From Salinivirgaceae bacterium (GTDB taxonomy: Bacteria > Bacteroidota > Bacteroidia > Bacteroidales > SZUA-534), in contig JAKSOL010000010.1 in NCBI GenBank assembly GCA_024405635.1, positions 2,128-66,127 of the forward strand: 64,000 nt of DNA, written 5' to 3'. The position numbers and the translations under genes are program-made. The stretch's first letter is position 1; each line of letters opens with the position of its first letter. Positions 1 through 19,337 of this stretch are shown in pieces. The notes beneath the pieces are model-generated. The model saw only the letters and a program-made list of their open reading frames with translations. It ran no database searches and was not told the origin of the DNA.

Positions 1-347
1 GACGCACAATATTTACACATTGCATTTACTACAATGTTGACGAAAGCAAGCTAACAGCAAAAGCACAAGCCGAGCTTGAAGAAGTTATTAAGTTCCTAAT
101 GGACAATCCAAACATTGGAGCCGAAATAAACGGTTATGCCGACCAAACAGGCGGCAGCGAGCACAACATTGATTTGTCGCAACAACGAGCACAAAACGTT
201 ACAAAACACTTGCTAAACAACGGAGTGGACCGACGGAAACTGATAACAAACGGGCACGGAACGTCGCTACGAAACGGCAAAACCGAAAACGGAGCAGTAA
301 ACTACCGTCGAGTTGAAATAATTTTGTTTGAACTTAAAAACAAGTAA
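1..347 (+). CDS. OmpA-family peptidoglycan-binding domain protein (C-terminal part; 5' end lies outside the window)
   Basis: Frame 3 is open from the window edge (..NVDESKLTAKAQAELEEVIKFL..) to the stop at 345-347. It carries the OmpA C-terminal-like signature NGYADQTGGSEHNIDLSQQRAQNV...YRRVEI. Confidence 0.85.
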   Translation, partial: RTIFTHCIYYNVDESKLTAKAQAELEEVIKFLMDNPNIGAEINGYADQTGGSEHNIDLSQQRAQNVTKHLLNNGVDRRKLITNGHGTSLRNGKTENGAVNYRRVEIILFELKNK

Positions 348-351
348 AGCC

Positions 352-897
352 ATGACAACAAAAAGAACCATATTGATGTCGGCATTGCTTTGCTTGCTGA
401 CACTAACAACAAAAGCCCAATATGCCGAGTACGAAATAAAGGCTGCATACATTTTCAACTTTGCAAAATTTATAGAGTGGCCCGAAACCGAAACCACGCC
501 CTCCGACTCTATCTATTTATGCATTTACCAAAAAGACCCATTTGGTGTTATTTTGGAAAAAACCATGGTTGGACGCACAGCCAACGGCAAAAGTTGGAGC
601 ATAAAACGTATAAATAGTTTGAAAGAAGTTACCAAATGCCACATCTTGGTAATACCAGACATAAGCCAACACAATGTAACTAAACTACTTAAAGAAATTG
701 GCAACAAACCAATACTAACCATTGGCGACGAAATACCAAACTTTTGCAATTTGGGTGGTATAGTAAACTTTACGCCTCAAATGTCAAAGTGTCAGTTTGA
801 AATGAACAACGATGTTGCTTGCGGCAACCGTATTCGCATAAATCCAAAATTGTTGCAATTGGCAAAAATCATATCAAATAAAGAAGATGAATTTTAA
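352..897 (+). CDS. YfiR-like periplasmic protein (DUF4154 family)
   Basis: An ATG at 352 lies 4 nt after the upstream stop. There is a signal peptide (MTTKRTILMSALLCLLTLTTKAQ) and the DUF4154/YfiR hallmark IKAAYIFNFAKFIEWPE. The 328 start in the ORF track is a TTG that overlaps the upstream gene. Confidence 0.75.
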   Translation: MTTKRTILMSALLCLLTLTTKAQYAEYEIKAAYIFNFAKFIEWPETETTPSDSIYLCIYQKDPFGVILEKTMVGRTANGKSWSIKRINSLKEVTKCHILVIPDISQHNVTKLLKEIGNKPILTIGDEIPNFCNLGGIVNFTPQMSKCQFEMNNDVACGNRIRINPKLLQLAKIISNKEDEF

Positions 898-3148
898 AGA
901 CATATCCATTAGGTCAAAGATCTCAATCTTAGTGGTGGGTATATGCTTAGCCACGCTGATTGTGTCTAGTTTATTGTTTTTTGTATTCGATAGCCGTCAA
1001 TACAAAAAAATGATACTTGAAAAAGTAACCATCACAGCCGATGTAATTGGAGGCAACAACACAGCCAACATCATTTTCAACAACCCACAAGAGGCCGCAA
1101 CAGTACTACGTACACTAATTGCCGACGATGGCATAAACGTAGCTCGCATATACGACAACGACGACAATATTTTTGCCGAATACATAAAAGAACCTGAGTA
1201 TGCAATGTCAAACCTCGATTTCATCACAAGCAACGCATCTCATAAATATGTAAAACGAACATTACTTGTAAAACGCCCTATTATTCTTGACAACGAGAAA
1301 ATTGGCGCAACATTTTTGAATTACAGCATGGAAGGATACTATGCCCGACGCATAAGTTTCATTCACTTTTTGTTAGGACTATTTACTGCTGCACTTATAA
1401 TTGTTTTGTTGCTAACTGTTAAACTTCAACGCATCATTTCAACCCCCATTATTAACTTGACAAACACGATGCGTAGCATTGAAAAAAACCTTGACTACAT
1501 TACAGTTGACGACAAAAGAAAAGACGAAATAGGCCAGTTAATAAATGGTTTTAACTCCATGATTACACAAATCAAGCAACAAAACCAAGATTTGGTACTG
1601 GCCAAAAACCAAGCAGAAAATTCTGCCAAAATTAAAGACCAATTTCTTGCCAACATGAGCCACGAAATTCGAACACCAATGAACGGTGTTATTGGTATGG
1701 CTAAATTGCTTGAAAACACTCCACTTTCAGCCGAACAAAAATGCTTTTTAGACAACATTTCAATATCGGCAAGCAACCTGCTAGTTATTATCAACGACAT
1801 TTTGGACTTCTCAAAAATTGAGGCAGGCAAAATGGAACTTGAAGAGATTGAATTTAATTTGAGCAACATAATTGACACATTAAATGTAGTTTACACCAAA
1901 ACAACCGCCGACAAACGCTTGTACTTTAAACTAAACATTGACGACAATGTGCCCAAAATGCTATGGGGCGACCCTACTCGACTAACACAAATACTGAACA
2001 ATTTGATTGGCAATGCCGTAAAATTCACCGAGTATGGAGGCATTACGCTCACCATAAAATCGCGTGAAATGTCGCACAACTTCACACATTTAAAGTTTAT
2101 TGTTTCAGACACTGGCATTGGCATCCCACAAGAAAAACAAGACCTTATATTCAAAAGTTTTTCGCAAGCAAGCAGCGACACGACGCGCAAATATGGAGGC
2201 ACAGGACTTGGACTTACCATATCGCGTCAACTGGCTTTAATGCACAAAGATGGAAACCTAACAGTTAGTAGCCAAATTGACAAAGGCAGTACATTTTGTT
2301 TCGATGTAACCTACAAACAAAGCAACGCCACCCCAGAACCTATTGTTAAGACTACTGAAAGACCAAAACCTATTGAAGGAAAAAACAGGGTTAAAGTACT
2401 ACTAGCCGAAGACAATGAGATAAACCAATTGTTTGTTAAAACAATTCTAAAACCATACTTTGATGTTTACTCGGCCGAAAATGGCAAAATTGTGGTTGAT
2501 TGGCTACGAAAAGAAGATTTTGACATTATTCTGATGGACTTGCACATGCCCGAAATGGACGGCTACCAAGCAACATCTGAAATACGAAAAATGGATGACG
2601 AACGAATAAACAACATTCCAATTATTGCATTAACAGCAGCTGCTATTAAAGGCGAACGCGAAAAATGCATCGACTCGGGAATGAACGACTACATTTCAAA
2701 ACCATTTAACCCCGATGAACTTATCGACAAGATTTTTAGTTTGGTAACGCCATCCGAAAACATTGCTAACAAGCCTGAAGAAAGCCCAAAAAGCAAAATC
2801 AAACCTACTGAATTCAAATACATAAACACCAAATACCTTGATTCAATAACCGACGGCGACGAAAACTTTCAACACCAACTAGTATCGATTTTTATTGATC
2901 AAGTGCCTGAACTTAAAAACAATATGCTTGAAGCATTTGAGTCGCACAACTACCATCGCCTATCAGAAGTTGCTCACAAGGCAAAATCTTCAGTTGCAAT
3001 GATGGGAATGAGCCAGTTACGCGAACACCTTGCTCGACTTGAGCAAAGTGCTAAAGAAGGCATTGAGGCTGAAACCTACAAAGAAAAAATTGACCTATTT
3101 ATTGTTACTTGCGAGGCCGCTATCGAAGAATGTAAAAACCTACTATAA
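887..3148 (+). CDS. Hybrid sensor histidine kinase (2 TM, periplasmic loop, HAMP, HisKA, HATPase, REC, Hpt)
   Basis: It overlaps the upstream stop by 11 nt. Two hydrophobic helices flank a roughly 120-aa loop. Motifs seen: H-box FLANMSHEIRTPMNGV, N-box NLIGNAVKFT, G-boxes DTGIGI and GGTGLGL, receiver VLLAEDNEINQ...ILMDLHMPEMDG...ISKPF, and a C-terminal Hpt motif AHKAKSSVAMMG. Confidence 0.92.
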   Translation: MNFKDISIRSKISILVVGICLATLIVSSLLFFVFDSRQYKKMILEKVTITADVIGGNNTANIIFNNPQEAATVLRTLIADDGINVARIYDNDDNIFAEYIKEPEYAMSNLDFITSNASHKYVKRTLLVKRPIILDNEKIGATFLNYSMEGYYARRISFIHFLLGLFTAALIIVLLLTVKLQRIISTPIINLTNTMRSIEKNLDYITVDDKRKDEIGQLINGFNSMITQIKQQNQDLVLAKNQAENSAKIKDQFLANMSHEIRTPMNGVIGMAKLLENTPLSAEQKCFLDNISISASNLLVIINDILDFSKIEAGKMELEEIEFNLSNIIDTLNVVYTKTTADKRLYFKLNIDDNVPKMLWGDPTRLTQILNNLIGNAVKFTEYGGITLTIKSREMSHNFTHLKFIVSDTGIGIPQEKQDLIFKSFSQASSDTTRKYGGTGLGLTISRQLALMHKDGNLTVSSQIDKGSTFCFDVTYKQSNATPEPIVKTTERPKPIEGKNRVKVLLAEDNEINQLFVKTILKPYFDVYSAENGKIVVDWLRKEDFDIILMDLHMPEMDGYQATSEIRKMDDERINNIPIIALTAAAIKGEREKCIDSGMNDYISKPFNPDELIDKIFSLVTPSENIANKPEESPKSKIKPTEFKYINTKYLDSITDGDENFQHQLVSIFIDQVPELKNNMLEAFESHNYHRLSEVAHKAKSSVAMMGMSQLREHLARLEQSAKEGIEAETYKEKIDLFIVTCEAAIEECKNLL

Positions 3149-3149
3149 T

Positions 3150-3491
3150 ATGATTATCAACAACGACATTACTGGTTGCGCCATTGTTTCACCAAACTTT
3201 AACAATCGCCGCATTACTGTTAGCAACGCTGAAGAGTTTAAAAAAGAATTATTTAAAGTACTTGACAACAACTACTTAAACTTAATTCTTAACCTAAAAG
3301 ACATCGACATTATTGATAGCACAGGTCTTGGCGTTATAATTACAAGTTACAACCGCGCACAAAACCGCAACTGCAAATTCAAACTTTGCAATTTAAGCAA
3401 CGCTGTTGCCAACTTGCTACACATGACTAAACTTGACCAAGCTCTTGACATTTATTCTTCAGTTGACGAGGCAGTTGCATCAATCAAATAA
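3150..3491 (+). CDS. STAS-domain protein (anti-sigma factor antagonist family)
   Basis: An ATG at 3150 lies 1 nt after the kinase stop. The SpoIIAA/RsbV-like motif IDIIDSTGLGVII retains the phosphorylatable Ser (Ser57, codon 3318-3320). The longer 3030 start overlaps the Hpt coding region. Confidence 0.85.
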   Translation: MIINNDITGCAIVSPNFNNRRITVSNAEEFKKELFKVLDNNYLNLILNLKDIDIIDSTGLGVIITSYNRAQNRNCKFKLCNLSNAVANLLHMTKLDQALDIYSSVDEAVASIK

Positions 3492-4927
3492 TGGAAACAA
3501 CAAAACTCAACGAGTCGATTTGGCATCAACTGTATGCGCAACAAACCGGCAACGAACCTATAAACATTGAAAAGCTACCTCGTTCTGGATCCGACCGCCA
3601 ATATGCTCGACTCACTAATGAAACTGGCGAAACTCTTTTGGCCGCTTTCAATCCTAATGTTGACGAAAACGAAGCCTATTTTGCATTTTCAGAACACTTT
3701 TCAAGATTTAACATTAACGTACCCAAAGTGTTGGCAATTGGCTCCGACAGGCAACACTATTTAGTTGAAGACATTGGCCGCGACTCGCTTTATGACCACA
3801 TAACACTCGCCAAAGGTGAGTTTAACAACCAACTCAACCAACTATACTGCAAAGCACTAACTGACCTTGTTCAAATGCAAGTTGTAGCAGGAAAAACAAT
3901 TGACTACACCAAATGCTTTCCAACCGACAAATTTGACCAAACCGCCATTGGTTGGGACCTTAACTACTTTAAATACTGCTACTTAAAGTTAGCTCACGTT
4001 GATTTTGACGAAGTTAAACTTGAACAAGATTTTGATGCTATAAAACAAGCCATTGCCAATATTGATTGTTCTGCATTTATGTTCCGCGATTTTCAGTCAC
4101 GAAACATTCTTCTGAAAAACAACACCCCATATTACATCGATTTTCAAGGAGGACGCCGCGGCCCACTTACTTACGATGTTGCATCGCTACTCTATCAAGC
4201 CAAGGCGCAATTGAGCGAAGATGTTCGCAACAAACTGTTTGACCATTACGCAACAGAATTGTCAAAAGTGAAAGCAATTGACAAAGCAAAACTATTTGGC
4301 GAGTTTAAACTATTTGCATTGCTACGAACTTTGCAAGTGCTTGGAGCTTATGGATATAGAGGATATTTTGAGCAAAAAACACACTTTATTTCAAGCATAC
4401 CATTTGCAATTGAAAACCTAAAAACACTATTGCAACAAAATTTGCCCATTGATTTGCCTTACATTAAACACATTGCTAATCAGTTAAATACGTCCAAAAC
4501 CATTTCAACCAAAGCCGACCGACTAACCGTTAAAGTGTTTAGTTTTTCATACAAACGAGGCATACCATTTGACGAATCTGGCAATGGCGGGGGATTTGTA
4601 TTCGATTGCCGTGGGCAACATAATCCAGGCCGATTCCCCGAATACAAAAACGTTACTGGTCGCGACCAAATGATTAAAGACTTTTTCAAACAAAACCCAG
4701 GCATCGACCAATTCCTTGATGATGCTACACGCACAGTTTCTCCTACCATTGAAACATATATGCGTCGCGGATTTGCTAGTCTAATGGTAAGTTTTGGTTG
4801 CACAGGTGGGCAACACCGTTCAGTTTATTGTGCACAAGGTTTTGCCGAACGTATAAGCAAACTATTTGATATTGATGTTGAACTTTGCCATCGCGAACAA
4901 AACATAACCGAAAAATTTAGCAGATAA
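3491..4927 (+). CDS. Fusion protein: AmgK-like (APH-fold) sugar kinase N-terminal domain plus RapZ C-terminal-like domain
   Basis: The start overlaps the STAS stop by 1 nt. The N-terminal domain has GSDRQYARL, FRDFQSRNILL and YIDFQGGRRGPLTYDVASLL, which are protein-kinase-like/APH motifs as in anomeric MurNAc/GlcNAc kinases. The C-terminal part (aa 343-478, nt 4517-4924) has LTVKVFSFSYKRGIPFD, FDCRGQHNPG, VTGRD and GCTGGQHRSVY. These align motif by motif with the E. coli RapZ C-terminal domain. Confidence 0.8.
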   Translation: METTKLNESIWHQLYAQQTGNEPINIEKLPRSGSDRQYARLTNETGETLLAAFNPNVDENEAYFAFSEHFSRFNINVPKVLAIGSDRQHYLVEDIGRDSLYDHITLAKGEFNNQLNQLYCKALTDLVQMQVVAGKTIDYTKCFPTDKFDQTAIGWDLNYFKYCYLKLAHVDFDEVKLEQDFDAIKQAIANIDCSAFMFRDFQSRNILLKNNTPYYIDFQGGRRGPLTYDVASLLYQAKAQLSEDVRNKLFDHYATELSKVKAIDKAKLFGEFKLFALLRTLQVLGAYGYRGYFEQKTHFISSIPFAIENLKTLLQQNLPIDLPYIKHIANQLNTSKTISTKADRLTVKVFSFSYKRGIPFDESGNGGGFVFDCRGQHNPGRFPEYKNVTGRDQMIKDFFKQNPGIDQFLDDATRTVSPTIETYMRRGFASLMVSFGCTGGQHRSVYCAQGFAERISKLFDIDVELCHREQNITEKFSR

Positions 4928-5647
4928 ATGGAAGCAATGCTATTTGCCGCTGGACTTGGCTCACGACTCCGCCCCCTGACAAACGACCGCCCCAAAGCCT
5001 TAGTTAAAGTTGCTGGTCGCACGCTACTTGAACACAATATTGCGGCACTTGAAAATGCTGGCGCAACTCACATTGTGATTAACGTGCACCACTTTGCCGA
5101 CATGATGAAACAAACTATAAGCAACATTAACTGCAAAGCAAAACTCACCATTTCCGACGAAAGCGAAATGCTACTTGACACAGGTGGAGGCATAAAACAC
5201 GCATCGCAATACTTTACAAGCAATAAACCTATTGTGGTTGCAAATGTTGACATTCTATCAAACATCAACCTACAAAAAATGTATGCGCAACACACTGAAA
5301 ACAAGACCATTGCAACTCTTGCCGTGCGCAATCGTAATAGTTCTAGAATGTTGCTTTTCAACTCAAACAACGAACTGAAAGGTTGGCAAAACAATAAAAC
5401 TGGCGAAGTGAAATATACAAGCAACGACCGAGACCTTAAACAATTAGCATTCAGTGGAATACACATAATTTCACCCGAAATTTTCAATTATTTCCCTACC
5501 GAAAACATATTTTCGATAATTGACTTTTATCTAAAATTAGCACAAACTGAGCGCATTGTTGGATACCAACACCAACAAGATTATTGGTTTGATGCTGGAT
5601 CGCCAGCAAAAATTGAAGAAGCCGAAAAATTTCTACTCACTTTATAA
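4928..5647 (+). CDS. Sugar-1-phosphate nucleotidyltransferase (MurU-like)
   Basis: The ATG immediately follows the upstream stop (taaatg). The N-terminal signature is MLFAAGLGSRLRPLTNDRPKALVKVAGRTLLEH. The size (239 aa) and the position next to an APH-fold kinase mirror the AmgK-MurU pairing. Confidence 0.75.
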   Translation: MEAMLFAAGLGSRLRPLTNDRPKALVKVAGRTLLEHNIAALENAGATHIVINVHHFADMMKQTISNINCKAKLTISDESEMLLDTGGGIKHASQYFTSNKPIVVANVDILSNINLQKMYAQHTENKTIATLAVRNRNSSRMLLFNSNNELKGWQNNKTGEVKYTSNDRDLKQLAFSGIHIISPEIFNYFPTENIFSIIDFYLKLAQTERIVGYQHQQDYWFDAGSPAKIEEAEKFLLTL

Positions 5648-5662
5648 CCACACAACTATCAA

Positions 5663-6382
5663 ATGATAAAAACTGCAAAAGAGCAATTTTTGCAAAAACA
5701 TAACTACCAGTCACTCAACATAAAAGCTGCGCTATTTGACATGGACGGAGTACTATTTAATAGTATGCCGTTACATGCCAAAGCATGGGTTGAAGCCTTG
5801 CGCAAACTTGGAATTAACTTTTCCGAATATGAAGTATATCTGAACGAAGGAAGAACAGGCTTTTCAACAATCGATGAGCAATTTTTAAAACAATTTGGCC
5901 GACATAGTACCGAACAAGAACAACGCGAAATATATGCTCAAAAAAGTGCCATTTTCAAATCGATGCCAAAACCTGCTCCTATTACAGGAACTTTGGATAT
6001 TGTTAAATACTTAGCCAACAACAAAATAGCCCGATTAGTAGTAACCGGGTCGGGAGAAGAAACAACACTAAACCGAGTTGCCGAACACTACCCTAACCTA
6101 TTTGACCGTAAACAAATGGTTACCGCACACGATGTTAAACTAGGCAAACCACACCCCGAGCCTTATTTAATGGGACTTAGCAAAGCGCAAGTTGCTGCAA
6201 ACGAAGCAATTGTAATTGAAAATGCTCCTCTCGGCATTAGAGCTGGTGTAGCTGCTGGCATTTTCACCATCGGAATAAACACTGGCATATTAAAACGCGA
6301 GGACCTTATAAATGCTGGCGCTGATTTGGTGTTTGACAATATGCACGAATTCTTACTATCTATTGAAGAAATAATACACTAA
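5663..6382 (+). CDS. HAD-IA hydrolase, beta-phosphoglucomutase-like (sugar-phosphate phosphatase or pyrophosphatase candidate)
   Basis: Motif I is FDMDGVLFNS, motif II is VVTGSG, and the motif III Lys is in GKPHPEPYL. Motif IV reads VIENAPLG, with E-N (6218-6223) rather than the usual E-D. Confidence 0.8.
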   Translation: MIKTAKEQFLQKHNYQSLNIKAALFDMDGVLFNSMPLHAKAWVEALRKLGINFSEYEVYLNEGRTGFSTIDEQFLKQFGRHSTEQEQREIYAQKSAIFKSMPKPAPITGTLDIVKYLANNKIARLVVTGSGEETTLNRVAEHYPNLFDRKQMVTAHDVKLGKPHPEPYLMGLSKAQVAANEAIVIENAPLGIRAGVAAGIFTIGINTGILKREDLINAGADLVFDNMHEFLLSIEEIIH

Positions 6383-6400
6383 TAATCAAACAAATACACA

Positions 6401-6949
6401 ATGAAAAAAGTTTACATTTTTCTAGCCGAAGGTTTTGAAACAATTGAGGCTCTGGCTCCTGTTGATGTGCTTCGACGCGGAGGGATTGACGTTGTAACAG
6501 TATCGATAACCGACAGCGAAACTGTTGCTTCATCGCACAAAGTATTGGTTAAAGCAGACACCACTTTTGCTAAAGCCAACCTAAGTGATGGCGATGCCAT
6601 TATTCTTCCTGGTGGTTTTCCTGGTTATGCCAACTTGGGAAAATCGGCCGAGGTTGGACAAACTATAAAGAATTACTACAACAGCGGCAAATTAGTTGCT
6701 GCCATTTGCGGCGCCCCTACAGTATTGAAAATAAACGAAATAGGTGAAGGTAAACTTATAACCTGCCATAGTTCGGTTGTTGCCGATATGGTAAACTACA
6801 ACTACACTGGTACAGCAACCGCTACCGATGGTAACCTTATTACTGCTGATGGTGCTGGGCATTCAATTGTTTTTGGTTGCGAAATATTACGCTATCTAAC
6901 CAACGACGAAACTGTTACTTCTGTTAGAGGCAAAATGGAGTTGAAATAA
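6401..6949 (+). CDS. DJ-1/PfpI family protein
   Basis: A 182-aa protein with the nucleophile-elbow AAICGAP and IILPGG, which is typical DJ-1/ThiJ-like architecture. Confidence 0.85.
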   Translation: MKKVYIFLAEGFETIEALAPVDVLRRGGIDVVTVSITDSETVASSHKVLVKADTTFAKANLSDGDAIILPGGFPGYANLGKSAEVGQTIKNYYNSGKLVAAICGAPTVLKINEIGEGKLITCHSSVVADMVNYNYTGTATATDGNLITADGAGHSIVFGCEILRYLTNDETVTSVRGKMELK

Positions 6950-6970: not shown

Positions 6971-7002
6971 AAAAAAGCCACGATTAAATCGTGGCTTTTT
7001 TG
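6971..7002. terminator. Bidirectional rho-independent terminator between convergent genes
   Basis: The sequence aaaaaagccacga-ttaaa-tcgtggctttttt forms a GC-rich stem flanked by an A-run and a T-run. Confidence 0.8.
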
Positions 7003-7023: not shown

Positions 7024-9078
7024 TTAATTCTCAGGATATGTTGCAACCTTTTTAATCGAATAATCTTTAGCGTAGTTAATTATATAAATAGCCGTATTTT
7101 GATAACCTCCCTGATCGGTTGTTGGCATAAAGTTTAGCGATGTTTGCAACAATGGTACTTTATGGAACATTATTGCACGACGAAAATCTCTACCATATTT
7201 ATTCAATGCCGAACAGAAATATGTTGTTATATCGTAAGCCTGAAAAGCGGTTTTGCTAGGTTCAATTTTAAACATATTTCGGAACTGACTTACAAACTCA
7301 ATTATCTGTGGTTCAGAATAGTTTATATATGAATTTGACAGAAAATGCATGTTTGTATTAAACAAGTTATCAATGTCAATACTCTCAAACATTTCCCATC
7401 GGCTTTGACCAAACACCGTAATGTCGTACTCGTATGAGTAACCGTTTATCTTTCCAATCACGTCGGTTACAAACGAACGGTCGGTTGATGGAATAATAAC
7501 AATATTCTCTCTTCCTTTTACAAACGCACTATTGAGCAAATCTCCATTTGCATTAAAATAGTAATACTCATGATAACGAACTTGGTCAAGGTTATCGCTA
7601 CTAATAGTTGAATAAAGCTGACGTTTAAATTCTGAAATGTAATCTTGCTCTTGACTATTTCCGTTATGAATAACTATGTAGTTTTTAGAATCGACTTGTG
7701 TTAAAAATTCTGCCACATACTTCATTTGAATATCAAACGATGGGCTTACCTGAAAAGCATACGGGTTATGTGTAATAAAATCGTTTTTAACCGACAATGG
7801 CGACACAATGTTTATTTGATGCTCCCAAGCATAATCGCCAACTACCGATAGTTCGCCACTAAATGCTGGACCAATAAACAAATCGAAGTTTGATAAATCG
7901 GTGGTTTTCAAATAGTTTGCAATATATGTACTATCGCCACGAGTATCAATTATTTTAACATTGAACGACATTCCTTTGCTCTTTAAATCTTGCAAAGCCA
8001 ACATTGCTCCAATGTAGAAATCAACAAACATTTTTGATTTGCCATATATCTTTCCAGTGCCGTCGCCCCAACCCGCTGTATCGCTCATATTTAGATACAA
8101 TGGCAAGAAGAAAGCTACATTGTACGATTTTTCGGTATCAATTTGAGCATTCATAAATTCAACCATCTCTTGCTTGTTAGCCGAGTAGTCGTTTATGCGA
8201 AGTTGCTCTTGTTCTTTTTGCTTAATCGCCGAACTATCAACCTTTGCAACCAACTCTGTTTCAGACATTACCATTGAGCTTCCCTTTGGTATGCGTATTA
8301 TTTCACCTTCTTGCAATCCTCGTTTTTTCAAATCGGGATTAAGTTTCAAAATCTGCTTATCGGATATATTGTATTTGCGGGCTATACCATACAAAGTTTC
8401 TTGTTTGGCAACTTTATGCCAATCGCATTCTTCCTCAGCAACAGCAGCAACTGCCTCTTTTGCAGGTATTTTAAGCGATTCGCCTATTTGTATTGAACGT
8501 GTTTTTATTTCTTGATTCAAAGCCTCAATTTCTTCAACCGAAACATGATACTGACGCGATATGCCAAACAGAGTTTCTTGTTTCTTAACTACGTGCAGAA
8601 TAAAAGAATTATCGTCAATAGCAGGTTCTTCAAACTCGGTATTTTGTTCGGTTTTATTGGCCACTTCTTGTGCACGAAAACGTAAACGGTCGCCTATGCG
8701 AATACCAAGTTCAGTTCCTGGGTTAAGTTCATACAATTCTGAAACCGTACAACCATAGCGCTTTGATAGGTTGTATGGTGTATCGCCTTTTTCTACTTTG
8801 TGGTAAATGTAGGTTGAGTTAACTACAGGCTCTTGCTTAACTCTAACTTTAATGTATTGGTTGGGATGAATAACGTATGCTGCTTGTGGGTTATCGGCAA
8901 TAAGAGTATCAACTGGCACCTCGTACTGGCGACTTATGGCGCTCAATGTTTCTCCTTGTCGAATAATGTGCATATAATATTCGCGACCGTTGAGCAACAC
9001 TTTATTATTTTGAGCATTTACGGCTGCGGCTAATAAAAGTCCTATTGATAGTATCCAAAAACGTTTCATATTGTGCAT
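7024..9078 (-). CDS. Secreted protein with four LysM repeats and a C-terminal type-I periplasmic-binding-protein-like domain
   Basis: There is a signal peptide (MKRFWILSIGLLLAAAVNAQ) and four LysM-like repeats (..GETLSAISRQYEV.., ..GDTPYNLSKRYGC.., ..QETLFGISRQYHV.., ..QETLYGIARKYNI..). A roughly 380-aa C-terminal domain follows. An alternative ATG start lies at 9069. Confidence 0.8.
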   Translation of the reverse strand: MHNMKRFWILSIGLLLAAAVNAQNNKVLLNGREYYMHIIRQGETLSAISRQYEVPVDTLIADNPQAAYVIHPNQYIKVRVKQEPVVNSTYIYHKVEKGDTPYNLSKRYGCTVSELYELNPGTELGIRIGDRLRFRAQEVANKTEQNTEFEEPAIDDNSFILHVVKKQETLFGISRQYHVSVEEIEALNQEIKTRSIQIGESLKIPAKEAVAAVAEEECDWHKVAKQETLYGIARKYNISDKQILKLNPDLKKRGLQEGEIIRIPKGSSMVMSETELVAKVDSSAIKQKEQEQLRINDYSANKQEMVEFMNAQIDTEKSYNVAFFLPLYLNMSDTAGWGDGTGKIYGKSKMFVDFYIGAMLALQDLKSKGMSFNVKIIDTRGDSTYIANYLKTTDLSNFDLFIGPAFSGELSVVGDYAWEHQINIVSPLSVKNDFITHNPYAFQVSPSFDIQMKYVAEFLTQVDSKNYIVIHNGNSQEQDYISEFKRQLYSTISSDNLDQVRYHEYYYFNANGDLLNSAFVKGRENIVIIPSTDRSFVTDVIGKINGYSYEYDITVFGQSRWEMFESIDIDNLFNTNMHFLSNSYINYSEPQIIEFVSQFRNMFKIEPSKTAFQAYDITTYFCSALNKYGRDFRRAIMFHKVPLLQTSLNFMPTTDQGGYQNTAIYIINYAKDYSIKKVATYPEN

Positions 9079-16670: not shown

Positions 16671-19337
16671 CTATTGAATCTCAAAACCGACTACCGAAAT
16701 ATCGTCAACTTGAGGGTTTGAACCACGCCACTCGTTGAATTTTTCCTCAAGAATAATCATTTGTTCTTCTTTTGGTTTGTTAACACATTGGCGCAAAACC
16801 TCTTTAAATCCCAAACTCTTCATTTTCACATTGTCGTTGCCACCAAACTGATCGTAATATCCGTCAGAGAACATATAAATTTGGTCGCCCGACATTAACT
16901 GAACTTTGGTTTGTGAGAACGAACGATCCTCGTTATCATAAAAACCAACTGGCATACGGTCTGGTTTTAGTTCAATAATACCACCTTCGCGGAAAATATA
17001 AATTGGGTTCATTGCTCCTGCAAAGACAAGTATTTTGTTTTCGCGATCGATTGACACAATTGACATATCCATGCCATCGCCAGCCGACGAATTGTTGTTG
17101 TTTTGATGCAGATATCGAATAACATCAATACGCAATCGATTAAGAATAGCTGCAGGTTGTACAATTCCAAGTTCTTCAACAATTTTACTCATCAGCAACA
17201 TTCCCACAAGACTCAAGAATGCACCAGGAACACCATGACCAGTTGAATCGGCACAAGCCACAATGGTACGCCCGTGTTTTTCGCCTATCCAATAAAAATC
17301 GCCACTAACAATATTACGTGGACGATAGTACGCAAAACTGTTTGGATATATTTTCGACAATGTCTCAAAAGGAGGCATTATGGTGTTTTGTATGCGGCAA
17401 GCATATTGAATACTAGCATTAATATCAATATTGGCAGCAGTTAACTCATCTTGAGTCTTTTTAAGTTTAGTAATGTTTGTTTCAATTGAAATAATGCTTT
17501 TAACATGGTTTTCTCCATCTGATGATAACAAAGGAGTTAGTGTTTGGTGTACCCAAAGTTGATCGCCCCATTTAGTAGTTATTCCAATCTCTTTTTCAAT
17601 CGATTCTTTAGTTTCTTGATTCTTCCAAATGCTAATAGCCTCGGCAACATCAACGCCGCCAAGCAGCGACGAATCCATCAACAAATCGTCTAAACTATAG
17701 CCATACATGTGCGAAAAGCCTTCGTTTATCCAAGTCAGATTTCCTTCATTGTCTAGCACTCTAATAGCATTATCGGTTTCGCAAGCAATAAGCGACAACT
17801 TTTCAAGTTCAAGATTTGTATCTTGCAAATGCTTACGCTGAGCCTCAATTTCTTCTTTTTGCTGCGATATTTTGAATGTTTTCTCTTGCAACTCAGCGTT
17901 TGCCTTACCTTTTTGCACCAACAACCTTATTAGAATCAGTGTTAGAATAATAGCCAACGCTATTAAGCAAGTAGCATAAGTAATAATATGGTATTGACGA
18001 CCTATAAGGCTTTGTTTCTTTTGGTTGTCAGATACAGTTTCTTGGTTTTGTCGCAACAACATTTCTTTTTGTTGGGTAAGACGCAGCAATTCTGCGTTTT
18101 GTAGCAATTCCATTTCTTGTTCTGACAATGAGGACAATACACTATCAGCATAAAGTATTGAGTTGCGATAATACTCGTTTGCCAAGCCTGTACGATTGGT
18201 CTTTGTGCTTATATCGCCAAGTATTTGACAAATTGCTTTAATGTCGGGCCAGTACTTTAACTGTTCAGCATAACTGAATGCGTTTTTGGCATAGTGCTCA
18301 GCTCCCATCAAGTTGCCGTTTAGCATATACAGTTCGGCCATAAACTTGTACACATAATAGTGCAACGACAAATCTTCTGATGAATTACACAGGGTTTCTG
18401 CTTTTGTTGCGTACTCTATTGAAGTGTTTAGCAAGTTTTGATAATAATACCACGTTGCCAAATCGAGGTTAGCTTTAATTTTTGGCAAAATAGCATCAGT
18501 ACGTTCACTCATTGTGCGAGAACGGTTAAAATCGTCAAGCGACACTTTTATTTCTCCATTTTCCCACTCAATGAATCCTATTATACTATATGCCATCACT
18601 TGGCCTGTTGGATTATTGATGGCATTAAATGTTGACAAAGCATCTTTTGCATACTCCATTGCTCCTTTTGAATCGAAACGTGCCCCACGTATTTTGGCAA
18701 TCATAAGCAATGCTTGACCATAATTACAATTTGCAGGGTCGCCTTGTGCTATTTCTTGCGCTGCTTGTGCATAAGCAAGTGCTTTGGGCATGTCGTTGCT
18801 TGAATAATAGTACTGAGCTTGCAATTCATCAAACTCAACTACAAGGGCACTATTTGACGATTCGGAAATATAATGTTGAGCTGAATCGAGATAACTGCGT
18901 GTTGTTTTTTGGTTTAGCAAAGCTTGCTCACAAGTAGCAAGTAAATAATATATTGACAACCAATAATCGTTAGAATTAGCGCCACCATTGACTTCCAATT
19001 TGGCACGAGCCTTTTTTACATATTTAATACACTCGCTTATTTGACCTAGTTGATAGCTCAAATAACCAGCATGAATATTCAATGAAATTTGAACGTTGGG
19101 TGTTGTGTCGGCTAAAAGTACTTGATTGTAAATACCGAGCGCCATTTTTAGCGAATTGCTTTTTTCATACACACTAGCCTCATTAAGCAAACTTTGGGCT
19201 TCATTGCTACTAACTGATAGTTGTCGCAAAGGCCTATCTTTTGCCTTACCTATTCGCTTATCGGACTCGGCACTAACTTGCGAAATTGCCGACAACGCAA
19301 AAAGCATTGAGACTATAAGAAAAAATAAGCGCTTCAT
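16671..19337 (-). CDS. TPR-repeat, transmembrane, PAS-domain, PP2C/SpoIIE-type serine phosphatase
   Basis: The order is a signal peptide, about 430 aa of TPR-like repeats, one TM helix (ITYATCLIALAIILTLILIRLLV), a coiled coil, a PAS-like region, and a C-terminal PP2C domain (SGDFYW, ADSTGHGVPGA, MFSDGYYDQ, DDISVVGF). Confidence 0.88.
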   Translation of the reverse strand: MKRLFFLIVSMLFALSAISQVSAESDKRIGKAKDRPLRQLSVSSNEAQSLLNEASVYEKSNSLKMALGIYNQVLLADTTPNVQISLNIHAGYLSYQLGQISECIKYVKKARAKLEVNGGANSNDYWLSIYYLLATCEQALLNQKTTRSYLDSAQHYISESSNSALVVEFDELQAQYYYSSNDMPKALAYAQAAQEIAQGDPANCNYGQALLMIAKIRGARFDSKGAMEYAKDALSTFNAINNPTGQVMAYSIIGFIEWENGEIKVSLDDFNRSRTMSERTDAILPKIKANLDLATWYYYQNLLNTSIEYATKAETLCNSSEDLSLHYYVYKFMAELYMLNGNLMGAEHYAKNAFSYAEQLKYWPDIKAICQILGDISTKTNRTGLANEYYRNSILYADSVLSSLSEQEMELLQNAELLRLTQQKEMLLRQNQETVSDNQKKQSLIGRQYHIITYATCLIALAIILTLILIRLLVQKGKANAELQEKTFKISQQKEEIEAQRKHLQDTNLELEKLSLIACETDNAIRVLDNEGNLTWINEGFSHMYGYSLDDLLMDSSLLGGVDVAEAISIWKNQETKESIEKEIGITTKWGDQLWVHQTLTPLLSSDGENHVKSIISIETNITKLKKTQDELTAANIDINASIQYACRIQNTIMPPFETLSKIYPNSFAYYRPRNIVSGDFYWIGEKHGRTIVACADSTGHGVPGAFLSLVGMLLMSKIVEELGIVQPAAILNRLRIDVIRYLHQNNNNSSAGDGMDMSIVSIDRENKILVFAGAMNPIYIFREGGIIELKPDRMPVGFYDNEDRSFSQTKVQLMSGDQIYMFSDGYYDQFGGNDNVKMKSLGFKEVLRQCVNKPKEEQMIILEEKFNEWRGSNPQVDDISVVGFEIQ

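Follow-up and report, generated by a model that had tools for sequence, protein, structure and literature searches.

The first 6,949 nucleotides (nt) of the DNA analysed here, a 64,000-nt stretch from a Salinivirgaceae bacterium (assembly GCA_024405635.1, genome G000; the whole stretch, G000:C2:2128-66127, is referred to as the window), carry eight consecutive genes in which a putative envelope sensor is directly followed by enzymes resembling those that salvage peptidoglycan sugars. We found that these eight genes most probably, at a rough probability of 0.6, form an operon peculiar to this lineage, a composite of three units that elsewhere are inherited separately, and are transcribed from a single promoter. 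The units are a sensor cassette (unit A, genes 1-4), a salvage pair of a sugar kinase and a nucleotidyltransferase (unit B, genes 5-6) and a pyrophosphatase gene with a DJ-1 gene (unit C, genes 7-8). The source genome comprises 2.66 Mb in 36 contigs, with metagenome-assembled genomes (MAGs) of Salinivirgaceae from ruminant guts as its closest named relatives. Regulatory coupling between the sensor and the salvage genes is likely; that such coupling is also adaptive, with sensing matched to supply, is a more tentative proposition, for which we would put the chance somewhat short of even within the composite, single-promoter reading.

The evidence that separates the units comes from their distribution among relatives. 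We compared the 33 genomes, from 8 genera, of the family as defined in GTDB, together with 80 loci of gene 5 fetched from the order Bacteroidales, about 70 of which belong to other families. An orthologue of the sensor kinase (gene 3) was present in 32 of the 33 family genomes and gene 5 in 31, and the two were adjacent in the present genome and in 13 of the 16 genomes of a sister genus, with contig breaks accounting for the other three. In every genome of the remaining six genera they were found on separate contigs; sequence inspection of genomes G119 and G206 showed the pair of genes 5 and 6 standing alone, and all five of the unlinked genomes that were tested carried gene 5 at another place. 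Among the 80 gene 5 loci, the sensor genes lay upstream only in the three closest (L003-L005). The cassette, in turn, exists without the pair. When searched for with gene 2, about 24 loci of Salinivirgaceae type carried genes 1-4, and in four of the loci (L098, L100, L101 and L106) the cassette closed with a hairpin-T terminator directly after gene 4, with yet another kinase found at that place in L105. In other phyla, only the gene 2 type and the sensor kinase remain together, never with the enzyme genes. Units A and B are, in other words, each autonomous, and their join was seen in this genus and its sister genus only, having arisen once, in their common ancestor, as judged from these gene orders. 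Across 18 linked loci, the gap between gene 4 and gene 5 varied merely from -4 to +14 nt. The initial annotation of this DNA had proposed that the eight genes make up a self-contained module sensing the state of the cell wall and supplying its precursors. As a self-contained or conserved module this was not borne out, the halves being linked in 2 of the family's 8 genera but at none of the approximately 70 loci from other Bacteroidales, and their co-occurrence agreed with it in part only: they are tightly joined in two genera but unlinked in most relatives above genus level, a pattern that had been named beforehand as speaking against a functional link.

Unit C is younger still in its present place. 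Gene 7 (5663-6382, plus strand) is predicted to encode an inorganic pyrophosphatase of HAD fold and BT2127 type, scoring 294 bits against NF053653 (cut-off 245) and matching the PDB entries 3QU2 (E 1.6e-64) and 3DV9 (E 5.5e-67), and gene 8 (6401-6949, plus strand) a DJ-1 family glyoxalase III/deglycase (PF01965, 137 bits; TIGR01383, 161.5 bits with a cut-off of 131.25), the translation of which retains the nucleophilic Cys in the motif AAICGAP. None of the linked relatives has these genes downstream of gene 6, the arrangement being private to this genome, and within the family gene 7 occurs in the two linked genera only, at a different locus in the sister genus. It is this distribution that resolves the eight-gene array into the three units of genes 1-4, 5-6 and 7-8. 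The HAD and DJ-1 proteins, previously counted as parts of the cell-wall module, thus fall outside the conserved block, and DJ-1 is without a link to the cell wall; the HAD domain call was itself correct, but the curated model and 3QU2 point to an inorganic pyrophosphatase and not to a sugar phosphatase. A role as a MupP-like salvage phosphatase for N-acetylmuramic acid (MurNAc) 6-phosphate was considered for gene 7 and rejected, considering that it reached no more than 31.6 bits with the MupP model NF009696 (cut-off 359) and that the PDB match was to a pyrophosphatase. Gene 7 passes the family model of BT2127 from Bacteroides thetaiotaomicron, whereas its placement beside AmgK/MurU-like and DJ-1 genes is unique to this genome. 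Among 80 other Bacteroidales loci of gene 7, none had a MurU-like or DJ-1 gene nearby, nor an AmgK-like gene adjoining it; a conserved triad of kinase, transferase and pyrophosphatase was also rejected for the Bacteroidales, with MurU near none of these 80 loci and gene 5 within 3 kb of a single one. In a sister-genus genome (G230), a BT2127-type pyrophosphatase, an NADPH-dependent FMN reductase and a DJ-1 orthologue stand consecutively at a separate locus (L255:5189-7345), and it is from such a row that genes 7 and 8 likely stem.

With regards to the layout of the array, the initial annotation could be reproduced throughout. Open reading frame (ORF) listing and direct reading both gave eight ORFs, all on the plus strand, with recomputed junctions of +4, -11, +1, -1, 0, +15 and +18 nt, identical to those reported before, and the plus strand of 1-6949 contained no terminator-like site. 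Three junction stretches were folded, those of gene 4 with gene 5, gene 6 with gene 7 and gene 7 with gene 8, and all were unstructured. Genes 2 and 3 overlapped by exactly 11 nt in all of the 26 related loci compared. Such spacing, taken by itself, suggests that translation of the eight genes may be coupled. The strong bidirectional terminator described earlier was likewise recovered at 6971-7002, folding on both strands at z values of about -8 (-25.5 kcal/mol on the plus strand, z -8.45; -28.3 kcal/mol on the minus strand, z -8.0), with the hairpin bordered by runs of A and T on either side.

Promoters in the Bacteroidota follow a consensus other than that of sigma-70. A scan for sigma-70 sites, with a consensus differing from that of the Bacteroidota, returned 24 sites where 24.6 were expected, which is the chance level, and the combined pattern TTTG-N17-23-TAnnTTTG also occurred at chance level. 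The Bacteroidetes -7 box, TAnnTTTG, was therefore used comparatively across relatives and not as a single-sequence scan. Used in this manner, it was found 31 to 35 nt ahead of the gene 1 start codon in 18 of 18 linked relatives, in which neither the 200 nt preceding genes 2, 3, 4 and 6 nor the 250 nt preceding gene 5 contained it. For unlinked, free-standing copies of gene 5, 17 of 68 loci had the box at -80 to -15 (Fisher p = 0.018 versus linked). In the present genome, a box with one mismatch occurs at the equivalent position within the 38 nt that precede gene 1, and no box precedes genes 5-8; the gene 1 promoter itself is not readable here, because the contig edge lies 38 nt upstream. The tight junctions, together with a box solely before gene 1 in the relatives, make one transcript from a promoter ahead of gene 1 likely, and we regard this single promoter as the best reading, possibly with a second promoter before gene 2.

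The proteins encoded by unit A have the make-up of an envelope sensor, and the domain calls of the initial annotation were reproduced here as in the rest of the array, i.e. OmpA, DUF4154/YfiR, CHASE8-HAMP-HisKA-HATPase-REC-Hpt, STAS, APH with RapZ_C, NTP_transferase of MurU-like type, HAD and DJ-1. Gene 1 is cut by the window edge, so that only its 3′ end is contained in the window (1-347, plus strand; ORF 3-347, open at its 5′ side). This end encodes an OmpA-type peptidoglycan-binding domain (PF00691, 64-69 bits) and corresponds to the last 114 codons of an 811-codon gene at G000:C2:39-2474, the full product of which has a signal peptide, TPR repeats, a PD40 beta-propeller (68 bits) and the OmpA domain, and should be secreted. 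Its scores against the PorE model (180 bits, cut-off 600) and the CHU_0125 model (210 bits, cut-off 620) lie far under both cut-offs and make it a PorE/CHU_0125-like paralogue; against the YfiB model it reached 52-57 bits (cut-off 128), and it has no lipobox and occupies the position of YfiB. Gene 2 (352-897, plus strand) encodes a periplasmic YfiR-like protein with a signal peptide and a DUF4154 domain (PF13689, 130.7 bits, cut-off 24.9), giving 106 bits with NF053591 (cut-off 125) and 50.9 bits with the NCBIfam YfiR model (cut-off 85), and matching the YfiR structures 4XJY and 4YN7 (E 3e-4) over residues 36-172, which is full length. The product of gene 3 (887-3148, plus strand) is a membrane hybrid histidine kinase with CHASE8 (41 bits) between two transmembrane segments, followed by HAMP (37 bits), HisKA, HATPase, REC and Hpt domains. 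Its sensing end is of YfiN type, it scored 151 bits with NF053592, the model for histidine kinases near YfiR-like genes (cut-off 194), and in the domain scan its output side showed no GGDEF domain, with HisKA-HATPase-REC-Hpt instead. Gene 4 (3150-3491, plus strand) is a single-domain STAS protein of the anti-sigma antagonist type (TIGR00377, 69.5 bits, cut-off 53.45), having its phosphorylatable Ser in DSTGLG, within a motif, IDS[ST]G[LF]G, that was invariant across 21 orthologues, and being one of just two STAS genes in the genome.

Some further genes of these kinds were seen outside the cassette. Two more distant YfiR-like paralogues and one PD40/OmpA-type paralogue of gene 1 are encoded elsewhere in the genome (C1:87451-87948, minus strand; C12:16292-16723 and C12:22975-24195, plus strand), the gene 1 paralogue lying about 6 kb from one of the YfiR-like genes, and these may be further sensors of a similar kind. 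Divergent from gene 1 in the sister genus are another TPR/PD40/OmpA gene, of about 680 codons (L083:290-2341 and L084:277-2322, minus strand), and two genes without Pfam hits; the equivalent region of the present genome is lost at the contig edge.

Unit A is most similar to YfiBNR (TpbB), the tripartite envelope-stress system of Pseudomonas aeruginosa and E. coli, the mechanism of which has been described (PMC3375315, PMC8085984) and in which YfiN has CHASE8 as its periplasmic domain (PMC8085984). Shared with that system are a gene for an OmpA/Pal-type peptidoglycan-binding protein, a YfiR homologue and an inner-membrane receptor with CHASE8-HAMP. The YfiBNR receptor, however, has a GGDEF cyclase output, in place of which the present locus has a hybrid histidine kinase that carries REC and Hpt domains; YfiB is a small lipoprotein, while the TPR/PD40 propeller protein of gene 1 has 811 residues and a signal peptide of the ordinary kind; a STAS gene follows here, and none of the three YfiB, YfiR and YfiR-like equivalog models reached its cut-off. 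A second likeness is to the pair of NF053591 (TOL_0243 family YfiR-like protein) and NF053592 found in Acidobacteriota, Desulfobacterota, Verrucomicrobiota and others, with which the cassette shares the order of a YfiR-like gene and then a kinase with a matching N-terminal sensor. In those phyla it is a TonB-dependent receptor, not an OmpA protein, that flanks the YfiR-like gene, in 5 of 10 listed loci (L107, L110, L125, L136 and L137) and upstream in four of them, and a scan of four downstream ORFs, out of nine ORFs scanned overall in loci of other phyla, gave one REC-GGDEF protein, one REC protein and no STAS. The YfiR-type device may thus report on differing outer-membrane partners. No paper that we found mentioned a YfiR-like or DUF4154 protein together with a histidine kinase.

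Unit B consists of two enzyme genes. Gene 5 (3491-4927, plus strand) encodes, according to profile and PDB matches, an APH-fold AmgK-like sugar kinase fused to the C-terminal domain of RapZ, and gene 6 (4928-5647, plus strand) a MurU-like sugar-1-phosphate nucleotidyltransferase, the best PDB matches of which are MurU 4Y7T (1.9e-18) and 8HHD. The pair is co-oriented, here with a gap of 0 nt, and was retained in most of the 80 Bacteroidales loci; upon clustering of the neighbouring ORFs, gene 6 was seen to adjoin gene 5 in 43 of the 70 other loci. The combination of APH and RapZ-C was common to all of the 120 top homologues of gene 5 (the best 120 of at least 8000), 181 of the 201 genomes from the order (about 90%) carried a homologue of gene 5, and no paper found mentioned AmgK together with RapZ. 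Within the RapZ-C part, at 4750-4800, there is a C-x5-R-S loop (CTGGQHRS) resembling the phosphate-binding loop of Cys-dependent phosphatases. In the sister genus, the spacers between genes 5 and 6 extend up to 168 nt and hold short tandem repeats with the units GTTAGAGA, AACTTCTAA and CAATCCTT (L084:11400-11500, L090:14630-14775 and L092:14578-14722); no terminator with a T tract was found in the longer gene 5-6 spacers of relatives.

Compared with the AmgK-MurU salvage pathway of Pseudomonas putida, P. aeruginosa and Tannerella forsythia, unit B likewise has an adjacent APH-fold kinase and small nucleotidyltransferase but differs in the extra RapZ C-terminal domain of its kinase and in being placed within a signalling operon instead of alone. 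A full-length kinase of the gene 5 type was found exactly once in three of four MAGs labelled as Tannerellaceae and in Parabacteroides distasonis, with no other AmgK-like gene there, and a working AmgK/MurU pair has been reported for Tannerella forsythia (PMC7670621, PMC10941766). The pair of the present genome would convert a free amino sugar, most likely MurNAc or N-acetylglucosamine, to its 1-phosphate and then to the uridine diphosphate (UDP) sugar. MurA is encoded elsewhere in the genome, so that a de novo route to UDP-MurNAc exists and the salvage pair would be a bypass rather than the sole route. The placing of an envelope-sensing and a salvage half in one array, as initially annotated, was accordingly upheld in kind, with a YfiBNR-like sensor half (OmpA protein, YfiR homologue and CHASE8-HAMP kinase) and an enzyme half of AmgK-like and MurU-like proteins, but not at the level of strict equivalence, since both halves fail the equivalog cut-offs.

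Taken together, these observations are compatible with the following course of events. Disturbance of the envelope, or of the connection from peptidoglycan to outer membrane, would lead the OmpA protein to sequester the YfiR-like protein and thereby release the CHASE8 kinase, by analogy with YfiBNR, whereupon the kinase could pass phosphate via its REC and Hpt domains to a regulator. The salvage pair would have been placed once, directly behind the STAS gene, in the common ancestor of the two linked genera, where unit B, having no canonical box in the linked clade, would be transcribed from the promoter before gene 1, such that the level of the salvage enzymes follows that of the sensor operon; feedback from the kinase onto the operon is conceivable as well. 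Unit C would have been added in this genome only, and its pyrophosphatase could pull the MurU step, which releases pyrophosphate. A mechanistic sense-and-supply module of this kind is what we infer from the gene order, and it is put forward less firmly than the regulatory coupling as such.

Several points weigh against the composite, single-promoter operon or its functional interpretation. The absence of the box before gene 5 is weak evidence, considering that the exact box precedes just 25% of the free-standing gene 5 loci. An exact -7 box, TAATTTTG, does lie inside the end of gene 1 (319-326, plus strand), 33 nt before the start codon of gene 2; it is missing at the equivalent place in all relatives and may either serve as an internal promoter private to this genome or match the consensus by chance. 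Near-consensus pairs of sigma-70-like hexamers also occur within the STAS coding sequence, close ahead of gene 5, at 3313-3340 (11 of 12 matches) and 3463-3492 (10 of 12), and are probably irrelevant in Bacteroidota. The operon holds no response regulator or DNA-binding protein, and autoregulation by the kinase is thus unsupported. The scores of genes 5 and 6, being far under the AmgK and MurU cut-offs (66.8 bits with NF045759, cut-off 550, and 57.2 bits with NF045698, cut-off 500, for gene 5; 141.9 bits with NF045697, cut-off 370, and 136.7 bits with NF045761, cut-off 250, for gene 6), make the substrate assigned to them tentative. The single join could, moreover, be a neutral rearrangement in small genomes, those of the linked genera being 2.6-3.7 Mb as compared to 3.5-6 Mb for near-complete genomes of the unlinked genera. 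Finally, a change of neighbours of gene 5, from a PP2C phosphatase to the STAS protein, which is described below, represents one evolutionary event that was noticed post hoc, in genomes where PP2C genes are common, and could be due to chance.

The change of neighbours just mentioned concerns the unlinked genera. There, gene 5 is preceded by a divergently oriented gene for a 1289-residue membrane phosphatase with Reg_prop, Y_Y_Y and SpoIIE (PP2C) domains (L173:10668-14537 in G119; also L172, L258-L261, L264 and L265). Full-length orthologues with 54-58% identity were found in 15 of the 16 genomes of these six genera; adjacency was determinable in 14 genomes, of which 11 had the phosphatase gene beside gene 5, and no orthologue was found in any of the 17 genomes of the two linked genera; in the approximately 70 loci of other families, no PP2C gene was present within 10 kb of gene 5. 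PP2C phosphatases of the SpoIIE type act on phospho-STAS proteins. That the salvage pair left its place beside this PP2C for one directly behind a STAS gene, in the very lineage that lost the PP2C, raises the odds of a real connection to STAS/PP2C signalling.

The genome has components for such signalling. It encodes 12 PP2C proteins of the SpoIIE type, none of them in the operon, and the nearest is a TPR-PAS-SpoIIE protein (16671-19337, minus strand). In partner switching, a STAS protein of the RsbV/SpoIIAA type is acted upon by an RsbW kinase and a PP2C phosphatase, and versions fed by a phosphorelay exist, such as HptB-HsbR-HsbA. The present system shares with these a STAS protein with a conserved phospho-Ser and many SpoIIE-type PP2C sensors in the genome, and the operon is without an RsbW-type kinase, a REC-PP2C protein or a sigma factor. 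No kinase of the RsbW/SpoIIAB type was recognized in the genome, in that no match to HATPase_c_2 exceeded the cut-off; two of three weak matches were scanned and were ordinary histidine kinases, the third lying in a 1233-codon frame. A REC-PP2C protein or RsbW kinase that would join Hpt to STAS was searched for and not found, the 7 of the 12 PP2C genes that were examined having no REC domain. The possibility that the two linked genera had retained a syntenic PP2C gene close to the operon was also considered and rejected, as the two nearby PP2C genes were not orthologues.

The alternative that fits the data best after the composite operon with functional coupling is that of neutral juxtaposition. 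Genome reduction or rearrangement would then have put the pair behind the cassette and removed the terminator, with the pyrophosphatase and DJ-1 genes coming later, and the genes would be co-transcribed, or served by weak internal promoters, with no functional relation. We consider this unlikely on balance, but it is to be taken seriously: the join is of single origin, each half works apart from the other in six genera and throughout the order, no genera of the family have smaller genomes than the linked ones, genes 7 and 8 illustrate that unrelated genes do become appended here, and the pair of YfiR-like protein and histidine kinase in other phyla never gains such enzymes. It accounts less easily for a junction that has been kept at -4 to +14 nt in at least 14 genomes of species level, whose proteins have diverged to about 55-63% identity, or for the landing site of the pair directly behind one of only two STAS genes. 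With the earlier neighbour having been a PP2C, of the class acting on STAS proteins, two chance adjacencies to one and the same pathway seem improbable, though this was noticed post hoc.

A far more speculative idea is that the AmgK-like/RapZ-C kinase is a working part of the PP2C/STAS circuit, either gated by the STAS protein or, through its APH domain, acting as the missing STAS kinase, with the state of the envelope then controlling salvage at the protein level; we regard this as a long shot. Its more specific form, in which the STAS protein, switched by inputs from kinase and PP2C, binds or is modified by the product of gene 5 so that envelope signals gate the salvage activity itself, would agree with the adjacency of the STAS gene and gene 5 at the translational level in all linked genomes, the earlier pairing of gene 5 with a PP2C, the 12 PP2C and two STAS genes in a genome where no RsbW-type STAS kinase was recognizable, and the invariant Ser, but is very improbable given that about 90% of Bacteroidales genomes have a gene 5 orthologue with no STAS or PP2C gene nearby and that the literature regards the Tannerella AmgK as a sugar kinase.

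Should the coupling in the composite operon be functional, a YfiBNR-type sensor watching over the connection between peptidoglycan and outer membrane would drive a bypass for precursor salvage, which amounts to a direct sense-and-supply loop for the cell wall, in a phylum where envelope-stress responses are poorly known. Should the link instead be neutral, the locus would illustrate ordinary operon accretion in a reduced genome. As the comparison with relatives and other phyla shows, the YfiR/CHASE8 device serves outputs besides the synthesis of cyclic di-GMP, together with an OmpA propeller protein here and with TonB-dependent receptors in other phyla, and the swap of a PP2C for a STAS neighbour offers a concrete handle on the regulation of the widespread and unstudied AmgK/RapZ-C kinase.

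As for the surroundings of the operon, the terminator at 6971-7002 is shared with a convergent gene on the minus strand (7024-9078), whose adjacency to the operon is not conserved among relatives. Its predicted product combines four LysM peptidoglycan-binding repeats with a periplasmic solute-binding domain (Peripla_BP_6/ANF receptor).

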